DNA from: an uncultured Verrucomicrobiae bacterium
GTDB taxonomy: Bacteria > Verrucomicrobiota > Verrucomicrobiia > Limisphaerales > SIBH01
DNA: 64,000 bases
Assembly (NCBI GenBank): GCA_963760275.1
Contig: CAVXCM010000007.1
Coordinates: forward strand, 196,921 to 260,920
Direction: 5' to 3'
In this document: positions 21,524 through 32,053 of the stretch, piece after piece
Layout of the letters: every line of letters begins with the position of its first letter
Position numbering within the stretch: position 1 is the first letter of the stretch
Position numbers and translations under genes: made by a program
Notes under the pieces: generated by a model
Told to the model about the DNA's origin: nothing
Seen by the model: the letters and a program-made list of their open reading frames with translations, nothing else
Database searches by the model: none

Positions 21524-21695
21524 ATTGTTCTGCGCGCGAAAGGAACGGGTTCAACCATTTCCAACAATTCACTCGCCCACCGGCCAAACGTCACGAAATA
21601 AATCCAGACCGATGAGACCGCGCAGCATTGAAACGGCAAAACGAAAAAGCCGGAACGATTTGCTCGCTCCGGCTTCTGTTGTTGCTGGGCCTGGC

Positions 21696-22310
21696 TTACA
21701 TCGCCATGCGCGAGATGGGGTCGCTCCAATCGCTGTAGCCGGTGCTCCCGCCGATGGCGCGAGCCTGCACCGTATACGTGATGCCGGGCGTAAGGTTCTC
21801 AATCAGGATAGGACGGGAATAAGTGAACAGTCCCACCAACTGCCACCCACTGGTCCCATAACTCATGCGCACCTCATAGGCGCGCGCCGTGGGCACGCGC
21901 TTGAGGCGCAAGCCGAGTTGGGTGCTCTGGGGATTATCCAAACGTTCCACTTCAGGCTTCACCAACACCACTTGCGTATGATTTGTGCGCACGGCATCGA
22001 AGCCCGAGGAGAGCAGCATGGCGAGGTCCTCCCCGGCGATGCTCTGCACATACGCCGCTTCCTGGCGAAGGCTGCTGAGCAGGAATGTCCGCGCCGCATT
22101 CTTGGCCGCGACATTCTGCCGGCCGCCTTGCATGGCGGCGGCGATCGCGTTGGCGAACACGGTGCGGGCCGCGGCGAGGCTCGCCATGCTGATGATTGGC
22201 GCGGCAAACGATTCGTTCCCTGTCATCTTTTGCACCACGTTATCCGCGAAGGAATTGAGCGGTGAGTCGGACAATCGGGCGAAGCCTAATGAAGTGCGAT
22301 ATGTAGCCAT
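21696..22310 (-). CDS. Fibronectin type III domain protein (helical N-terminus + FN3), no signal peptide
   Basis: C-terminal NLTPGITYTVQARAIGGSTGYSDWSDP; ggaaaggaaac SD-like sequence upstream. Confidence 0.8.
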   Translation of the reverse strand: MATYRTSLGFARLSDSPLNSFADNVVQKMTGNESFAAPIISMASLAAARTVFANAIAAAMQGGRQNVAAKNAARTFLLSSLRQEAAYVQSIAGEDLAMLLSSGFDAVRTNHTQVVLVKPEVERLDNPQSTQLGLRLKRVPTARAYEVRMSYGTSGWQLVGLFTYSRPILIENLTPGITYTVQARAIGGSTGYSDWSDPISRMAM

Positions 22311-22889
22311 AATAGTTTCCTTTCCAACCGAAGTGCCTGGAGCTTGATGCTAGGCTCGCCACACAGCGAATCTAATAAACGGTTGTTCCGGCCGGCTGCT
22401 GCCTTTTAGGGCGCAGTGGGTTGTGGCCTTGAGCCAACTGTTGCACAAATACCCGAGCACTGAGTGTGATGTCGCGGCGGTCTGGCCAATCTTAACCCCA
22501 TTTCAGGGGCTCAATCCGCCTGGGCAAGTGGGAAGGAATGTGAGATGAAACCTTCAGACCGGACAGGCAGGCAGGACAAGCTGCTGCTGAATCACGATGA
22601 AGAAATCCCGGTAGGACCTGACAGAGCGCCTAGCGTCTTTTCTTGTATTTCCTGAGGCACCGTTCCGCATATCGAATGCCAACACGGTTGGCTGCTGTCC
22701 ACGCCCCATTCTTCCGGACTCCTTCCTGAAAGGCAGGTAGCAATAGATCGGAAAATGTCCCACGAACGCGGGAAAGGTAATCTGCTTCCCGCTCGCATCG
22801 CGCCCCACTGTCACTCGCGGCGCCAACCCGGAAAACCATCGCGTGCTTGTCTCATGGAAAGACAGCCAACAGACACGCTGTCTCGTTTA

Positions 22890-23215
22890 GCAAGTCTGCT
22901 GACCGCGTTTGCAGACTTGCTGAGCGGCTGTGCAGACTTGCTGAGCGGCTGTGCAGACTTGCTGAACGACTGTGCAGACTTGCTGAACGGCTGTGCAGAC
23001 TTGCTGAACGGCTGTGCAGACTTGCGGAACGGCTGTGCAGACCTGCTGAACGGCTGTGCAGACCTGCTGAGCGGCTGTGCAGACTTGCTGAACGACTGTG
23101 CAGACTTGCTGAACGGCTGTGCAGACTTGCTGAACGACTGTGCAGACTTGCTGAACGGCTGTGCAGACTTGCTGAGCGGCTGTGCAGACTTGCTGAACGG
23201 CTGTGCAGACCTGCT
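22890..23215. repeat. 21-bp tandem repeat (gcagacttgctgaacggctgt) x14 plus degenerate flanking units
   Basis: Full units at 22911-23204 with few variable positions; 11-bp inverted repeat at 22889-22921. Confidence 0.95.
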
Positions 23216-23318
23216 CCCGACGTTTGCAGGCTTGGTGGGCCTCTGGGTAACGGGGCTCGACGCTCTGGCCAGGTTCGCAACGAACGGAAGGAGGTTGCCA
23301 GGTAGGCGATGCGGAGTT

Positions 23319-23384
23319 CGAATGCAGAAGTCCGAATTGCGATGTCCAGATTAGTTCGACATTCCAAATTCGTCATTCGTCATT
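23319..23384. repeat. 66-bp REP-like element with attcgtc heptamers, copy 1
   Basis: cgaatgcagaagtccgaatt...aattcgtcattcgtcatt; direct copy at 23547-23612. Confidence 0.8.
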
Positions 23385-23391
23385 CGCTTCG

Positions 23392-23540
23392 TTCGTCCTT
23401 GAGCAGCTGCTCCAGCAACTCGGCGGCGACGTTCTTGTGCTTTAGGCCGCGCACTTCGGCGAGGAATTGGTCGCTCAGGATCGAGATGTCCGGCTTGGAC
23501 AATCCAGCGGCGGTGAAGACGTCGATCACCTGGCCCTGGG
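23392..23540 (-). pseudogene. hsdR: Type I restriction subunit R C-terminal (DUF3387) fragment
   Basis: [47 protein letters not shown]. Confidence 0.8.
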
Positions 23541-23546
23541 GAAGTG

Positions 23547-23612
23547 CGAATGCAGAAGTCCGAATTACGAAGTTCAGCCAGTTCGGCATTCGCGAATTCG
23601 TCATTCGTCATT
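23547..23612. repeat. 66-bp REP-like element, copy 2
   Basis: Direct repeat of 23319-23384. Confidence 0.8.
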
Positions 23613-23614
23613 TT

Positions 23615-23685
23615 CCACTCCGTCACCACCTGCACCCAGCGCTTCTTGCCGTCTTCCTGTTCGAGGATGTTCTCCTGTCCGGCGA
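23615..23685 (-). pseudogene. hsdR: Second short HsdR fragment
   Basis: AGQENILEQEDGKKRWVQVVTE resembles the HsdR segment preceding DUF3387. Confidence 0.6.
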
Positions 23686-25741
23686 TTAGACAAACCGGCA
23701 GCGCTTAGCTCTGCGATGCACTCACGCACTAGTCTCTTTGCTTTGGGAAGGAACTTGTAGCTGATGCGCTTCGTTGGCTTGCCCGTCCTCCCGATCAACG
23801 GATGGGATGCCATGCTTTCGTACCGGCGATCATGAACTTCCGTCGCCAGTTCATAGGTCTTGGGAAACTTCCTCGCGAGCTTGCCCGTTGGTGCGTTCAA
23901 AACGCTACCGATATGGCCGAGGTTGTAGCCACCGACGGTTCCGTCGCTGCTGACAACGGCATCCAACAGCAGATCATCAAACACATCGAGGAAGTTGACG
24001 AAACCGGTGATGTTCACGCCGGAAGCGGCGACGGTCTCGATTGCCTGTAGTTCAGCCTGGTCATAGCGCGTTCCAAAAAGTTTACGCCAGTTCAGTGCTG
24101 GAATGCGGGAATCGAGTTTGCGGAGTGCGTGATTGATTCCGCAGTAGTTGGCCGTCGAGCGCTGAATGATCCCAAGCTCACGCATAATCAGTTCGGCGGA
24201 TTTGTTCCAACCCCGCCGTCTGCCGGGTGGCAGGTAGGCAGTTTCCATACCCTTCCATCCGGCGGCGAGTGCGGCATCTCGTCCTCGATCAGTCACTCCC
24301 GCCTCGACGATTTGTTGAGCGTGTTCCTGCCCAACTGAGACGGGCTGGCGGCATTGATCAGGGATGCACGAACCCACCACGCGGGCGCAACTTTGCAGGC
24401 ATAGGCAATCTGGCTGGCGGACAGAGTGCCGGTGCGAATCAGGAACCGGCCCGTGGCAACCTGCAGGTCGGCGTGCATACCCTTTGGAGACCACGATTTC
24501 TTCAACAGCCGTGCCATGGCCCTGTCCTCGGCGACTGGAAGGCGCCCATCTGCTGCGTCGATAAACTCTGCGCGCACGGATTGGTAAAGCGTGCTGGCTT
24601 TCACGAGCTCGACCAGCTTCGAGGCAGGCACACGAGGCAGCTTGGCGTAGCGTCGTAGGTAGTTGCAGACGCTCCGGTAGATTTCGGGGTGCTTCTCCAG
24701 AATCCGCCACAGCCGGGCGGTCAGAATCGTGCGGAGGCGTCGCGTGCGCTAGCAGATATTTGAAGCGAGTGGGGTTGCTGATTCGATAGCGCGGGCGTCA
24801 GTTCCTCGATGCGCGTTAGCAGCTTTTTCTGATCCGTAAAGTTGGTCTTGATCGCCGCTTCCGGCGGGTTGGACACAGACTTCAGCTCGTCCTCAATGTT
24901 GTGGACGCGGTGGATGCTGATCTTGCCACTTTGCGGGAACAGACCGACATCCTTGCTCATCAGATCGAGCGAAACGAGTAGGCGACGCAAGTCGTGCTCG
25001 TTCTTGGCGAAGAGTCGAATGTCGTCCACATAGCGGAAGTAGCGGAACATCGACGCCGGGGAGTCTTCAGCTCGTCGAGATGGACAAGCACGACTTCGGA
25101 GAGGAGGCCGGACGAAACGGTCCTTGAGGGATGCCGTGACCGTGGTGATGCCCGCTCGGTCGCGGTCCACTTCTCCAGCCACCGCGGCAACTTATGCAGA
25201 AGTCCGGGTCGAGGCCGAGCTTGTCGAGGAAGTGGCGGAGCACGCGGTGGTCGAGACTGTCGTAGCAGGCGGTGAGGTCGAAGCTGGCGGTATAGACGTA
25301 GCCGCCGCGAATGCGTCTCGGGCGTATTCGTTGAAGGCTTTGTAGCCGTCGCTCCATTTTCGGTAGAACCAGGTCGATGTCTTGCCGACGTAGAGGTGCC
25401 CGAAGACTTGTTTGATGTAACGTTGGTCGACTCGGGGCCAGCTTCTCCGCGATGAGGTTGACGGCTGCTTGATAAACGATCTGGTCTTCGACGCTGGGCA
25501 ACGAAAACGGACGGAGGATGCCGGAGGCTTTGGGGTGAAAAAGCTTGCAGGCCGATTCGGGTTCGTAGATGTCCGCTTTAGCCTGTCAGCGAGGTCATCA
25601 AGCAGCGCCTCCTCTGCGACGGCATACTGTTGGTAGAGCGGTCGGAAGTAGGACTTGTAGGAAGCGTCTGCATTCGACCGCAGCCAACGCCACGCTCGGC
25701 GGCAGGTTTTCTGGGTGACGCAGTTGGTTGAGGTCCGACAT
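23686..25741 (-). CDS. Reverse transcriptase, UG/Abi (AbiA-like) class: RT + helical region + putative HEPN; multiple frameshifts
   Basis: Reconstructed across frames: MSDLNQLRHPENL-RRAWRWLRSN, PKASGILRPFS, DQIVYQA, FYRKWSDGYKAF, FDLTACYDSLDH, GIPQG, YFRYVDDIRLF, C-terminal HDRRYESMASHP. Confidence 0.85.
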
Positions 25742-25851
25742 GCAAAGGCTCAGCCGTTGAAGATGCGGTCGAGTAGCAAGGGGTCAAGCGTTTCACATAG
25801 CTCTCCGCCTGAGCATCCCGGTAACGCTGCGCTGGAGAATAGTAGCACAGG

Positions 25852-27316
25852 CTAATTAGCATCTGGGATTTTAATCAGGTTCTCAACCGAACAAGCTAAA
25901 GCAGCTAACGATGATTTCACGGCGGCCGGGCCGAAAAACGCCCCGTCCTTGTGCATAACATCATTGAGTTCCGCAATCTGCTTGGTGCAGTTCGAAATGG
26001 CCCCAAGCAAATCAGAGGAGTATGGCAACCTCATTCCCGCAATCTTCTTCTTCAGTTTATTGGCGACATTATCCAGCAAATCACTGTGGCCTTTTTGCTG
26101 TTGATCGGGCGTTTCTTCATAGCAGCCCAGTCTCTTAGCGTGATGTTTCAGCGTTGTTTCAATCATGGCGCGGGTCAGCGCGGCACACGCGACTGGAAAC
26201 TCTCTATACTGCTGAAGCCTGCAATACTCGTAGAAAATAGCGGACGCCTTCTTGCCCACGTTTTTTCTCAGTGAAAGAATTTGCCGATCTGTGGGAGGGG
26301 TGTCGCCTCCTGGCTGGGTTAGGATCCATTGCTACCCTCGTTGCCAGATGTACTCCCAGCGCTGCCGCTATCACCCGGTTTCCCAGCTCCAGCGGGCTTG
26401 CTGCCCTTTGGCTCTGGGGTGGGCTGTGTTTGGCTTGGAGAAGCTGGTTTGAACCCATTCGGCAGGATTGATTTCCAGAACTCTTGCCGCGACTCTTCGT
26501 TGTTTGCAGACCTACGGGTAAATCCGCCTTCAAGTGTTGACTTTGCAAATCCAAGATATGCGCGATGGATGACTTCCACGACCTCACGGTTGTTAGGAAC
26601 TTGATACACGCCATCAGAATCCCAGGGCGAATCCGAGCATCTTTGGAAATGCAGAAAACGATGTTGTTACGCGCTCAAAATTGGTGATGCCATCATCTTC
26701 AAGCTGGAAGTCCGGAATGTGGATCATCATTGCTTCGTAGAGCAGCCATATGTTGATCTCCTTGCGGATTTCAGTCTGTGTAGCTCCGGTGACCTCGGCG
26801 ATGTCCTGAATGGACTGTCCAGCCTTGTGATTGTCGTAGTGAGATGCATAGCGAGCTAATGTTTCCCACTCGCGAGAACCTTCATTGTGCGCCCGATACA
26901 CAATTCTCTTGGCGTCGCTAATACTCGAAGTCACCCAGTATCTGATTTTGCCAGGAACCAATCCTTTGAGCTTCTCGCAGTCAGCGCGGAGACCATGCCG
27001 AGTGCTCGGCACGAGGGTGAGGTCATGGATCATCTTGAGCGCCGCGACTCGCCTATTGCCGTCAATAACCACAAGCTGCGATTTCCCTGGAGCCTTGAAC
27101 ACTACTGGGATTTCATTGTTTAGATATCCTCGGTCTGCCAATAGGTGCTTGATCACTTGGCTTGGAGACTGCGAACCCATCCTGCACAGTCTTTCGATTA
27201 GCTCTTTCTCAGATGTGCCACCAGGGTGGAGACGCAGGCGCGGGATTTAGTCGATGAGCAAGGCGCAAAGTTGCGACGCTGACTTCACGGGAGCTGATTT
27301 GGCAGAACTCTTTCAT
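25852..27316 (-). CDS. ParB/Srx-like N-terminal domain protein with a HEPN-like C-terminal helical domain (frameshifted)
   Basis: NPR.., VVIDGNRRVAALK, proline-rich linker, FPVACAALTRAMIETTL...LNDVMH; joins ORFs 26614-27180, 26319-26609 and 25852-26259. Confidence 0.65.
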
Positions 27317-28193
27317 TTGATTGCGGATTGTGATGGGAATTTCAGTTTATCAGCGAGGGTTATAAATTCCCTCCTTCTACCTTTGTTCGCGAGTGCGTGG
27401 TGCGTGTGAATCGTTGTGTGCTGGTGTTGCTTGTAAAGTTCCAAAATCTCCGGGCAGAGGTCATAGCTCAGGACCCATGATTGATCGTGGAACTCATCAG
27501 GAAGTCACGGAGAGCCTCGTGGTCGCTGTGCGTGTATGCGTTCAGATAAAGCTCCGCAGCCTTGTGGTAATACGGTGGGTCCAAGTAAACAAAATAGTCT
27601 TCCAGCGTTTCCGCAGCTCGCCGGAGGAGTGTGATCGCATCCATGTTTCGTGCTGTGATCCGGTGCCGGTTCTCGTGTAGGAACTTGACCTTTGCTTTCA
27701 GTGCCGGTCGGTGGAAGCGACAGTCTATTGAGTAGCTGCCGGATTGGTCATAGCCGCCGATCGGCCCCCCGCAGCGCTTAATGACTCCTGACACGCAAGT
27801 TCGGTTAAGGTAAAAAGCCGCAAATCCAAGCTCAAATCCCCGTGCCCGTCCCCTCAAAATGCGGCGTTGGTTGTGCCATTCTTCGACATCGAGCTCAACG
27901 GTCTGTATGAGCTCCATGAACCGTTCACCCTCAGTTAAAGCTGCCTTCCAGAACCAATAGACTGCCGGGTCTTTGTCATTGAGTGTAACTGAGCACTGTA
28001 CGCCAGTGCGTAGTAATTCGAGAGCGGCGCCTGCACCCCCTGCATATGGCTCTAGATAATGGCATCCGTTCAATCCGTTCAGTTCGATTACCGCCGCTAG
28101 GTAAGGGGCGAAAGATCGCTTTCCGCCGGGATACCGCAGCGGGCTGATATGCCTCTGCAACTGGAGGGCGACGTATTTTTCAGGCGGGCTCAT
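27313..28193 (-). CDS. Dam/D12-class N6-adenine DNA methyltransferase (frameshift near 27475)
   Basis: SPLRYPGGK, EPYAGGAG, YLNRT, YLDPPYY; continues as WVLSYD...SAIK-stop with an ATGA overlap into the ParB-like gene. Confidence 0.9.
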
Positions 28194-28617: not shown

Positions 28618-29764
28618 TCAGAATTCTTCATCATCGGCGAAATACTCTGCAGTTTTTTGGAGGAAGTCTGGCTTCAGCGAAGTCGCGAGGCCGAGCTTCC
28701 GAATTCCGTCCAACTTTTCCATCAACTTCGAGAAACTGATGAATCCGCAGACCTTCGCGAGGGGCTTTTCACGAAGGGCAAATGTCGGGCGTAGAATCTC
28801 CTGCTCGACTTTGTCCTGTCGTTCCTCCGGGGCGACTAGAAATAAATTGATTTCAAGGTTCGGCTGCAATGCGAGGAGGTCGCTCATGCGAAGCAGGCCA
28901 GAGTAAACCGCCGTGGTGCATTCGACCTCAAATGCGGCGACGATGGAGTTCCCCTTGAGCCAGAGTCCATCGATCGACTCGATGGTGCGGTTGGTCGCTT
29001 CGTTGAATTGGGTGGGCGACTCGGTGACCATGCGCGGAAGTTCGCCGAGCGTCTTGCCCTGCCATTTCTTGGAGCGGTCATTGCGCGCGACCCAGAGGTC
29101 GAAGCCCATGTCTACGCCCAAGGTGAGAAGGTTGTATTGAATCTCAGTGTGGCGTGTCGTCGCTGTTGCCTCCTGCTCGGTCGTGAAGTCTGGCTTGCCC
29201 GTTTGCTCTTCGGGTTCGTCGGATTCAGGGACGCTGACCTTCGTCGCGACTGTGGTTTTTCCTTTCTTTTGCTCGGCAGTGTAGAGGGGTTTGCGTGCGA
29301 GCTTCTTGGGGTCGACGGGGCGAGCGATGGGGTTGGTTTGCGCCTGTTTGAGAAGGGAGCCGGATAAGCTCGCCGTCCTTGGGATTCGTAAAGCGGTTCG
29401 GGCTGGAACGGACGAATGCCTTGAATTTACCTCGGTCTTTTCGGCCAGTGTAAAAGGCAACTTTACCCTCAAGCTCCATCATCGGGACTCCGTGTTCTGG
29501 GTTGAGTTGGATGAGTGGCTTCACCTCGAAGCGAATGGGAAATCTTCATCACCCCAAATCTTCGACTGGTCGTCGGTCGCTCGCACCACTTCCAAAGCGC
29601 CCACCCAGCGCATTACTCCAGTGAGGTAGCAGAGGAGAATGTCACCGGGTTGAACTTTCGCCGCAGCATTGCGCATTCTCTTGCGGAACCCGGAGATTCT
29701 TCAGCCCGGACTTTTGGAACTCGTTCCAAGTAGTGCCAGTGAAGAGGTCGAGCCAGTAGTTCAT
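28618..29764 (-). CDS. EVE/PUA-like domain + PD-(D/E)XK nuclease (putative modification-dependent restriction), frameshifted
   Basis: MNYWLDLFTGTTW, VQPGDILLCYLTGVMRWVGALEV; C-terminal HTEIQ..L..LG, IDGLWLKGNSIVAAFEVECTT.VYSGLLRM.DL. Confidence 0.8.
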
Positions 29765-31076: not shown

Positions 31077-31976
31077 ATGAGCAATGCCCCGGTTCAAACG
31101 CAGGCCGGACTTGAAGCGCAACCTCCGTTGCCGGTGCGTCGTTTGCACAACTTCATCTATTGCCCGCGGCTGTTTTATTTCCAGTGGGTCGAAAACATTT
31201 TCCAGGAGAACGCGGACACGGTGGCGGGCAGTCACGCGCATCGCAACGTGGATGCGCCGTCGAAGCTGGAGGACGCCAAGGAACTCGGCCTGCCGGAAGG
31301 GGCGAAGATTCGCAGTCTCAAGCTGGAGAGCGAAGCGCTGGGGCTGGTCGGCGTGGTGGACATTGTCGAGGGCGGGCCGGAGGGCGCGGAGGTGCTCGAT
31401 TACAAGCGCGGCTCGGCGCGGCGGAACGCGGAGGGCGAACGCGAGGCGAAGGAGCCGGACGCCATCCAGGTGGCCGCCCATGCGCTGCTCCTGCGCGAGC
31501 ACGGGGTGAACGCGGTGCGCGGCGCGATCTATTACGCGGCGGACAAGCGGCGCGTGCCGGTGGATTTCACGGAGGAACTGTTTGGCAAGGTCACGAAGGC
31601 CATCACCGATGCGAAGCAGACGGCGAGCAGCGGGCGCTGTCCGCCGCCACTCAAGAATGATGCGCGCTGCCTGTATTGCTCGGCGTATCCGGTCTGTCTG
31701 CCGAATGAAACGCGCTGGTGGGCACAGGCGCGGAAGGAGGCGGTGCCGGAGCCGCAGTTACACTTTGCGTTCAGCCCGCCAGCGGAAGATCGATTGCGCG
31801 AACAGATTCTTGAGGCGCTGGATTTCGCCGCGGAGTCGGGCCTGCGCGTTGGTCAGGTTCACAAAGTTCGTCCGCGCAGTCGCCGCAATTCCGAAGAGCG
31901 TGAGGCGGCCACTCAGGTTCGGCGAGATACGTGTCAGTATCCAGGCGCGCAGTCGCCGCAATTCCGAAGAGCGTGA
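31077..31976 (+). CDS. cas4: CRISPR-associated Cas4 (N-terminal part of a Cas4-Cas1 fusion, Cas1 lost); the ORF runs on into the array
   Basis: LHNFIYCPRLFY, GVVDIVE, LDYKRG, Q...ALLL, CLYCSAYPVCLP (4-Cys Fe-S cluster). Confidence 0.85.
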   Translation: MSNAPVQTQAGLEAQPPLPVRRLHNFIYCPRLFYFQWVENIFQENADTVAGSHAHRNVDAPSKLEDAKELGLPEGAKIRSLKLESEALGLVGVVDIVEGGPEGAEVLDYKRGSARRNAEGEREAKEPDAIQVAAHALLLREHGVNAVRGAIYYAADKRRVPVDFTEELFGKVTKAITDAKQTASSGRCPPPLKNDARCLYCSAYPVCLPNETRWWAQARKEAVPEPQLHFAFSPPAEDRLREQILEALDFAAESGLRVGQVHKVRPRSRRNSEEREAATQVRRDTCQYPGAQSPQFRRA

Positions 31977-32053
31977 GGCGGACTCATTCAGGGCCGTGCG
32001 GTTGTTCATGTATCCGGCGCGCAGTCGCCGCAGTTCAAAGGGTATGTGGCAGT
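31873..32053 (+). CRISPR. Mini/relic CRISPR array: two identical 36-bp repeats plus one degenerate repeat, spacers of 36-37 bp
   Basis: cgcgcagtcgccgcaattccgaagagcgtgaggcgg at 31873-31908 and 31946-31981, degenerate copy from 32018; adjacent to cas4. Confidence 0.75.

Follow-up and report, generated by a model that had tools for sequence, protein, structure and literature searches.

The 64,000-nucleotide stretch analysed here, hereafter the window, carries a helix-bundle and FN3 gene on the reverse strand, together with a predicted leader, a sigma-54-type promoter motif and a 21-bp tandem array (Table 1).

Table 1. Positions of the features at the FN3 locus (window coordinates)
Feature	Position	Strand	Remarks
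Intrinsic-terminator-like hairpin closing the cassette	21645..21677	-	pattern match
FN3 gene, 204 aa	21696..22310	-	three-helix bundle ~1-108 + FN3 112-204
Predicted 5' leader	22311..22655	-	start inferred from sigma-54 motif; conserved blocks in close relatives
Possible second leader hairpin near ribosome-binding site	22350..22374	-	unsupported: 53/500 shuffles reach paired fraction
Predicted 5'-proximal leader stem-loop	22600..22644	-	75% of cells paired vs 69.5% shuffled
Sigma-54-type promoter motif	22667..22681	-	-24 GG 22680-22679, -12 GC 22668-22667; ~210 nt from array
Degenerate gene-proximal unit	22890..22910	.	central four bases inverted about the unit's own dyad
Array core	22911..23204	.	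14 near-identical 21-bp units
Two degenerate distal units	23205..23246 (23205-23225, 23226-23246)	.	12 and 14 of 21 matches

The FN3 gene is preceded by a purine-rich ribosome-binding site at about 22318-22323. An earlier note on this DNA had described it as a gene without a signal peptide, and both points are borne out: 334 homologues were retrieved in the first search, an FN3 fold was assigned to residues 112-204, and inspection of alignment A1 by eye revealed no signal-peptide-like N-terminus. The AlphaFold model of the 204-aa protein shows an FN3 domain preceded by a three-helix bundle. As modelled, the FN3 fold of the C-terminal domain is certain (Z 14.2, rmsd 1.4, 88 aligned), and Pfam places FN3 below its cut-off in this protein. 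The bundle resembles those of talin and FAT at a generic level (Z 9.1, rmsd 3.1, 95 aligned), and Foldseek returned no match for it below E 0.001. The fold matches of the protein include no DNA-binding protein, while a library of viral structures yielded FN3-only matches. The family is unnamed in NCBIfam, PADLOC and PHROGs, and its Atlas clusters are nameless; at 50% identity it falls into no fewer than 359 clusters (E up to 1e-30), which include long multi-FN3 proteins. The protein is not strongly basic, since the mean K+R and D+E counts are 8.0 and 9.0 in the bundle and 8.8 and 6.5 in the FN3 domain; R74, R82, R135, R166 and R184 are 90-100% conserved in close homologues. Twenty N-terminally extended database proteins were rejected as fusions, since most look like upstream start calls; a few of them enter array frames.

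The window array was described by TRF as having a period of 21, 14.6 copies and 94% matches. Four columns of the unit vary (7, 11, 14 and 17), with 10 variant bases in total. Five of the six frames are stop-free, stops being confined to the QTC*TAV frame, and 8 of the 10 variants are synonymous in both the LCRLAER and the SASLHSR frame, which amounts to one observation rather than two because these frames share wobble positions. The unit count, the variable columns, the open frames, the synonymous count and a perfect 11-bp inverted repeat (22889-22899 / 22911-22921) are all as the earlier note stated. An ATG-led ORF (22755-23354, +) also runs through the array, and 8 of the 10 variants are nonsynonymous in its frame. 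The dyad axis of the unit pairs positions 1-10, 2-9 and 3-8 and is perfected by 6 of the 10 variants; the palindromy of this array taken by itself is not significant (0.58 versus 0.52, p 0.17). The window array is a recent, homogeneous expansion. Its inverted repeat follows from the four-base central inversion in the degenerate gene-proximal unit, in register with the 21-bp grid, and template switching may have caused this spacer inversion. The terminal hairpin of the earlier note thus exists as a perfect inverted repeat but is not conserved, as such 11-bp repeats are present in 19 of 78 arrays and at the gene-proximal end in only 3. Beyond the array, a 74-aa fragment of the C-terminus of a type I restriction subunit is bracketed by two short elements (23310-23402 and 23540-23620), which are related to each other and contain 7-bp repeats and a hairpin.

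Across loci, the array heads a conserved stand-alone cassette in which a 21-bp-period array, a sigma-54-type promoter motif, a 5' leader, the helix-bundle and FN3 gene and a terminator follow in that order. A total of 190 loci, including that of the window, was collected; 169 are full-length, and 151 remained after the removal of identical genes. Linkage was scored where, within the 800 nt upstream of the gene, the match at lag 21 reached 0.5 or more across 126 nt. Such a signal was observed upstream in 68% of 104 loci and downstream in 3% of 114, compared with 0% of 62 far-upstream and 3% of 66 far-downstream flanks, and no lags other than 21, 42 and 63 are prominent. The earlier note had named in advance, as a test of its undescribed FN3 and repeat module, the enrichment of 21-bp arrays near FN3 homologues; among the 82 loci with both flanks, the array lies upstream in 62 and downstream in 2, and the module is thereby supported. 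After clustering at 60% protein identity, the corresponding figures are 17 and 1 of 28 clusters. The same period test was passed by 5 of 3000 800-nt windows drawn at random from the genome that contains the array described here. The association extends to more distant paralogues. In one set, all nine loci with at least 190 nt of upstream DNA carry an array (outside these nine are a locus with 65 nt upstream and a partial gene, which is negative), and in a second set of 16 the array was found upstream in 11 and downstream in none; one of these positives is a 7-bp repeat at a locus already counted, and two of the negatives carry 41- and 22/44-bp arrays instead. The median array is 13 units long and lies at a median distance of 235 nt from the start codon. 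No description of an array and FN3 cassette was found in the open-access literature searched. Arrays with single-base register shifts occur at L068, L070, L081, L095 and L100, where one frame stays open across the shifts.

The distribution of the cassette family is patchy, and most searched genomes are without a match. Relatives of the FN3 protein belong mainly to Verrucomicrobiota, with Atlas clusters also in Bacteroidota, and the number of cassette copies per genome ranges from none to 11. In phylum samples, matches were obtained in 8 of 301 genomes, four of them solely via FN3 domains of long proteins, and in the phylum of G361 in 1 of 251. No match was found among 72,556 plasmids, and viral contigs yielded a single 30-residue match. 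In 9 of 9 congeners, the orthologous beta-propeller gene has no cassette upstream of it. The genome of the window holds a second paralogue (L017, C2:265693-266304), which is 46% identical and has a sigma-54 motif; its 21-bp array is strongly decayed and of unrelated sequence. The same genome contains three orphan arrays (C2:1323184-1323459, C2:1479915-1480205 and C3:125-421, with periods of 21, 42/43 and 41 bp) with no FN3 gene or sigma-54 motif nearby, two of which adjoin restriction- or toxin-like fragments. The first of them also reads as an ATG-led KKEMASL heptad ORF. At L029 of this genome (C8:159837-160745), the 3' fragment of an FN3 gene abuts a four-helix-bundle-like ORF that begins with a 7-bp x 34 repeat, which suggests that an insertion may have destroyed a cassette.

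The nearest neighbours of the cassette are unrelated between loci and include no constant regulator; an enhancer-binding protein is encoded within 4 kb at only 5 of 151 loci, and no recombinase travels with the cassette among the nearest neighbours. Upstream, 4 of 72 nearest neighbours match PADLOC, and downstream 3 of 82, as raw counts. The copy in the window borders a defence island, and the earlier note had placed the array between an RT locus and the FN3 gene. The array does lie between the two, but the RT fragments (24721-25501) start about 1.5 kb from it, with a further ORF (23601-24710) intervening, and are outside the cassette. No RT was detected among the 72 upstream and 82 downstream nearest neighbours; the RT link is not conserved, and the RT of the window belongs to the adjoining island. 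Neither a conserved RT nor the adenine-specific mutagenesis of a DGR was found, the substitution spectrum of the arrays being flat, and linkage to a DGR, retron or DRT is not indicated. The island itself (23601-28193) comprises a UG19-class RT in at least two frames (24721-25182 and 25067-25501), PD-Lambda-5 A in pieces and the PD-Lambda-5 B methyltransferase, and is followed by a type II REase-like ORF (28618-29472); many of its genes are split, possibly by assembly errors. Further on, at 31077-32036, a Cas4/Cas1-fusion-like N-terminus is interrupted by three 36-37-nt repeats with a 73-nt period, which resemble a mini CRISPR array written into the gene. At other loci, a small co-oriented family of collagen-like or fibre-like genes follows the FN3 gene (7 of 151 loci: L012, L021, L026, L028, L030, L072 and L091, with a related collagen match in L079), while a divergent, very large secreted protein with no family match at its N-terminus is encoded upstream of the array at L041, L044, L046, L052, L053, L069, L154 and L183.

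What is conserved in the arrays is the period and the symmetry. Among 114 loci, the period is a multiple of 21 in 93 and 20/40, 41, 61, 62, 65 or 83 in 6, with none in 15; in the set of 16 distant paralogues, periods of 22/44, 65 and 41 also occur. The period is helical (20-22 bp and sums thereof) and not bound to codons, and the units share with iterons and centromeres a phasing by helical turns, at 20-22 bp and multiples. Complementarity about the best axis is 0.52 compared with 0.41 in the null and exceeds the null mean in 78 of 82 arrays, while a mirror control is flat. Dyad-perfecting variants were counted 702 times where 509 would be expected (wrong-axis control 0.99 +/- 0.04), dyad-paired columns are less variable, and jointly swapped pairs are in excess (92 versus 66). 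Pairs of two wobble positions are about as complementary as other pairs (0.57 versus 0.59). The dyad is actively kept in the arrays. Template switching has been described to homogenise arms and invert spacers (PMC8604942), and selection could produce the same signature.

The letters, on the other hand, are not conserved. Where two proteins are less than 80% identical, the identity of their consensus units is 0.46-0.59, with a shuffled level of 0.46, and the value is just 0.59 even between proteins that are 70-80% identical. Arrays of paralogues in the same genome are no more alike (0.47, 36 pairs) than those of different genomes (0.47, 19 pairs); sites of one activator would be expected to share a dyad sequence, which these same-genome arrays do not. 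A weak family-wide consensus is nevertheless present (4.1 bits versus 1.8 in the null).

The earlier note had described a region of about 600 bp without a convincing ORF between gene and array. This description is better replaced by a spacer of ~210 nt, the sigma-54-type motif and a predicted leader of ~345 nt. The motif in the window points toward the FN3 gene and scores 16.2 with a matrix built without it, a score of 15 being reached by 28 sites in the genome. Across loci, it was found on the gene strand of 65 of 128 upstream regions, with 3 antisense occurrences, compared with 2 of 126 downstream and 4 of 68 far-upstream controls; it combines the -24/-12 elements of a sigma-54 promoter with orientation toward the gene and enrichment over controls. 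Among 90 array loci, the motif lies between array and gene in 55, where the array is mostly 30-300 nt upstream of it, is absent in 30 and lies upstream of the array in 5. It is clade-limited, being present at 1 of 16 further distant loci, and the invariable position upstream of a sigma-54 promoter that marks a UAS is not observed (55/90; 1/16). At L061 and L170, the motif is upstream of the array, which would place the array inside the transcript. A single match to the RpoN box on contig C6 presumably indicates that the host encodes RpoN.

The window's copy of the leader holds an insertion of ~100 nt relative to close relatives, and as a whole it does not fold better than shuffles (z +1.1). 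Covariation of its 5'-proximal stem-loop is weak, with 14 of 500 shuffles reaching it. For long leaders, RNAalifold gave no consensus structure and the first 110 nt have no folding excess (mean z +0.09, n 21). Short leaders, in contrast, are more stably folded than their shuffled versions (mean z -1.5, n 55; reverse strand -0.8, upstream -0.6), and in 23 loci, which were picked by eye from these 55 and scored with the structure of one member, 14 of 16 pairs of a stem-loop at the same position as that of the window change on both sides. The covariance check proposed in the earlier note accordingly gave a strong signal in the short-leader relatives but a weak one in the long-leader clade of the window. 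The short-leader stem-loop is a candidate for a new cis-RNA motif, judging from this covariation; Rfam had no match in L044 or in three further short-leader loci tested. Bulged examples are found at L044:3930-3992 and L135:2094-2160. The terminator-like hairpin is supported by its position alone, because 2 such patterns were found against 2.3 expected in shuffles.

In principle, the array might act as peptide, as RNA or as DNA, or have no function. It is distinctly improbable that the array is translated, perhaps on both strands, to give a heptad peptide by which the FN3 protein's three-helix bundle is completed, although several observations speak for such a peptide. Of 82 arrays, 62 have a stop-free frame on the gene strand and 45 have one on the opposite strand, compared with 36 and 33 in column-permuted nulls; consensus units contain stops at 5 of 68 loci in each shared-wobble frame compared with 15-25 in the other frames; third-position GC is 0.55 versus 0.44; the bundle resembles talin and FAT bundles that bind helical peptides (Z 9.1 or less); and the window has its ATG-led ORF. 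However, in the 68 arrays with at least six in-register units that were used for the coding and RNA tests, pN/pS is 0.88-0.98 in all six frames and codon positions are equally variable, and no excess of synonymous or conservative substitutions was found in arrays. The stop-poor frame is poor in all pyrimidine-purine (YR) steps, so that CG, CA and TAY are as rare as stops, and this triplet frame is tied to the dyad (57 versus 7 of 68 loci; 24 versus 3 of 28 clusters), which keeps translation at roughly one tenth of the total weight. The strand and register of the open frames differ from locus to locus, many of the frames listed are without a start codon, and their flanks are unconserved; no start codon was found for the frame of the window that matches the family, and most of the window variants alter the amino acid in the ATG-led frame. 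One conserved frame with a start codon and purifying selection, as in a coding heptad-repeat gene, was not observed. Together with the non-triplet periods and the position of the array upstream of the predicted promoter, these findings speak against the heptad peptide envisaged in the earlier note. Its RNA element fares worse, and a structured non-coding RNA is very improbable. Arrays do fold better than column-permuted controls at 64 of 68 loci, yet the opposite strand does so at 63 of 68, the array in the window is outdone in folding by its controls, G-U is more frequent than A-C in only 33 of 68 arrays, indicating no strand bias, unit-local covariation is absent (0.581 versus 0.578 +/- 0.003) and Rfam gave no match, whereas the leader hairpin of relatives does covary. 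Since there is no G-U excess, both strands fold equally and the arms do not covary, the symmetry is a property of double-stranded DNA. A neutral minisatellite would account for the rapid turnover of sequence and for the orphan arrays, but is scarcely credible given the one-sided linkage, the low chance level in random windows and the conservation of period, side and dyad.

The array probably has a non-coding role as double-stranded DNA, and of the three mechanisms in the earlier note, phased protein-binding sites fit best. The reading tentatively preferred here, which is possible rather than probable, is that the array is a platform of non-coding double-stranded DNA for a protein dimer that would control the promoter. 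Its weakly palindromic units recur every two helical turns, and a dyad repeated in this way brings all symmetry axes onto one face of the helix. The dimer, most likely of the FN3 protein that the cassette itself encodes, would coat this face over ~270 bp and thus control the predicted sigma-54 promoter. With many weak sites and cooperative contacts, spacing would presumably matter more than letters, while slippage would homogenise each array and template switching and/or selection would maintain the dyad. The FN3 protein is preferred as the binder because the array follows its gene across promoter types and neighbourhoods, because no regulator travels with the array and because paralogous arrays in one cell share no consensus. 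What counts against this assignment is that the protein is only modestly charged, that array letters drift fast and that orphan arrays exist. The low array identity between closely similar proteins is hard to reconcile with a strictly sequence-specific pair, and the dyad-tied, stop-poor and YR-poor triplet frame is not predicted by an own-protein platform. It is also conceivable, if unlikely, that each helical-bundle/FN3 paralogue polymerises on its own array, which would give up to eleven orthogonal, co-diversifying pairs per genome serving as autoregulated sensors or decoys in inter-genome conflict.

The same platform might instead be bound by a low-specificity host factor, either a sigma-54 enhancer-binding protein or a nucleoid protein, the array then being an unusually long enhancer. 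Sigma-54 promoters need an upstream activator, and the array is mostly located at a suitable distance from the motif, with only A/T-rich words and no other conserved activator site between the two; the weak family consensus and the RpoN-box match in the genome point the same way. Such a binder is nonetheless somewhat unlikely, as the motif is absent from 30 of 90 array loci and nearly all of the further ones, paralogous arrays of one genome have no common consensus, and of 144 strong sigma-54-like sites in the genome only that of the window has a strong array upstream. Moreover, no phase lock of the dyad to the promoter was found at 10.5 bp (R 0.07, n 43); the R of 0.41 at 10.8 bp belongs to one of seven periods tried, with kin included. 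Quite unlikely is a role as DNA structure alone, or as a recombination or template-switch hotspot that moves or duplicates the cassette, with the symmetry largely a mutational by-product. The excess of dyad-perfecting variants and swapped pairs is a signature of template switching (PMC8604942), and the inverted spacer of the window's terminal unit, the missing cassette in all nine congeners, the up to 11 paralogues per genome and the orphan arrays are in keeping with this. On the other hand, intrinsic curvature is not favoured because the A-tract signal at 10.5 bp is below the null (0.041 versus 0.062), complementarity of 50-60% would be weak for cruciforms, no recombinase accompanies the cassette, and a by-product leaves the 20-22 bp period, the median of 13 units and the fixed side and distance (235 nt) unexplained.

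An element that conserves spacing and symmetry rather than letters is invisible to motif and homology searches, and the presence of unrelated arrays at each paralogue of one genome is predicted by no known class of regulator. If the platform is bound by the cassette's own protein, it would represent a new DNA-binding fold combination with a set of orthogonal operators; if the paralogues form orthogonal pairs, bacteria would be using the FN3 fold in a new way, to bind DNA, and the arrays would make up a natural library of phased operators that are orthogonal to one another; and if the binder belongs to the host, PVC bacteria and Bacteroidota would have a new kind of enhancer that is read by shape. 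At 1.6 kb, the cassette is compact and self-contained, so that a single protein and a single 300-bp DNA would suffice for a direct test.

With respect to known systems, the array works like a phased operator, iteron or centromere but lacks membership features of each. Sigma-54 enhancers of the NtrC-type UAS consist of one to three sites of conserved sequence that serve one activator. The arrays resemble them in having dyad sites at enhancer distance upstream of a -24/-12 motif (55/90 loci), and differ in that their sequence is unconserved and a third of the loci are without the promoter motif. Plasmid iterons and type I-III centromeres (R6K, P1, sopC, parC and tubC) are built of tandem units that each span some two or four turns of the helix, and the cassette likewise combines tandem phased units with an adjacent gene whose product could bind cooperatively and autoregulate. 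However, neither the Rep gene and plasmid or second-chromosome location of an iteron origin nor the NTPase and centromere-binding protein genes of a partition centromere were found in the nearest neighbours and the plasmid search: no Rep, ParA/ParM/TubZ or ParB gene lies beside the array and none of the 72,556 plasmids carries the cassette. The helix-bundle and FN3 neighbour, the dyadic units and the up to 11 unrelated copies per genome are further differences. Unlike a CRISPR array, the units are head-to-tail and have no unique spacers. The 204-aa protein has the FN3 fold of animal FN3 modules and an antiparallel helical bundle that resembles those of talin/vinculin/FAT (PDB 2x0c, 5w93 and 3f7q), although at a level that a commonly occurring arrangement would also reach, and no Pfam family scores above cut-off. 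Expanded paralogues, an intracellular Ig-fold domain and proposed roles in conflict are shared with the Ig-fused HU-HIG systems of Bacteroidetes (PMC5499826), whereas the FN3 cassette is without an HU domain and the available part of that source mentions neither fibronectin nor a DNA array. A precedent in the DNA is offered by BvgA~P, whose dimers occupy weak sites 22 bp apart, two turns on one DNA face (PMC7250471). BvgA is an established response regulator and its sites do not form a tandem repeat, while the FN3 arrays consist of 10-20 homogenised units, have no known regulator and differ in sequence at each paralogue. As at Pptx and Pfha, the FN3 arrays would offer several weak dimer sites, centred two turns apart upstream of a promoter and poorly predictable from sequence.
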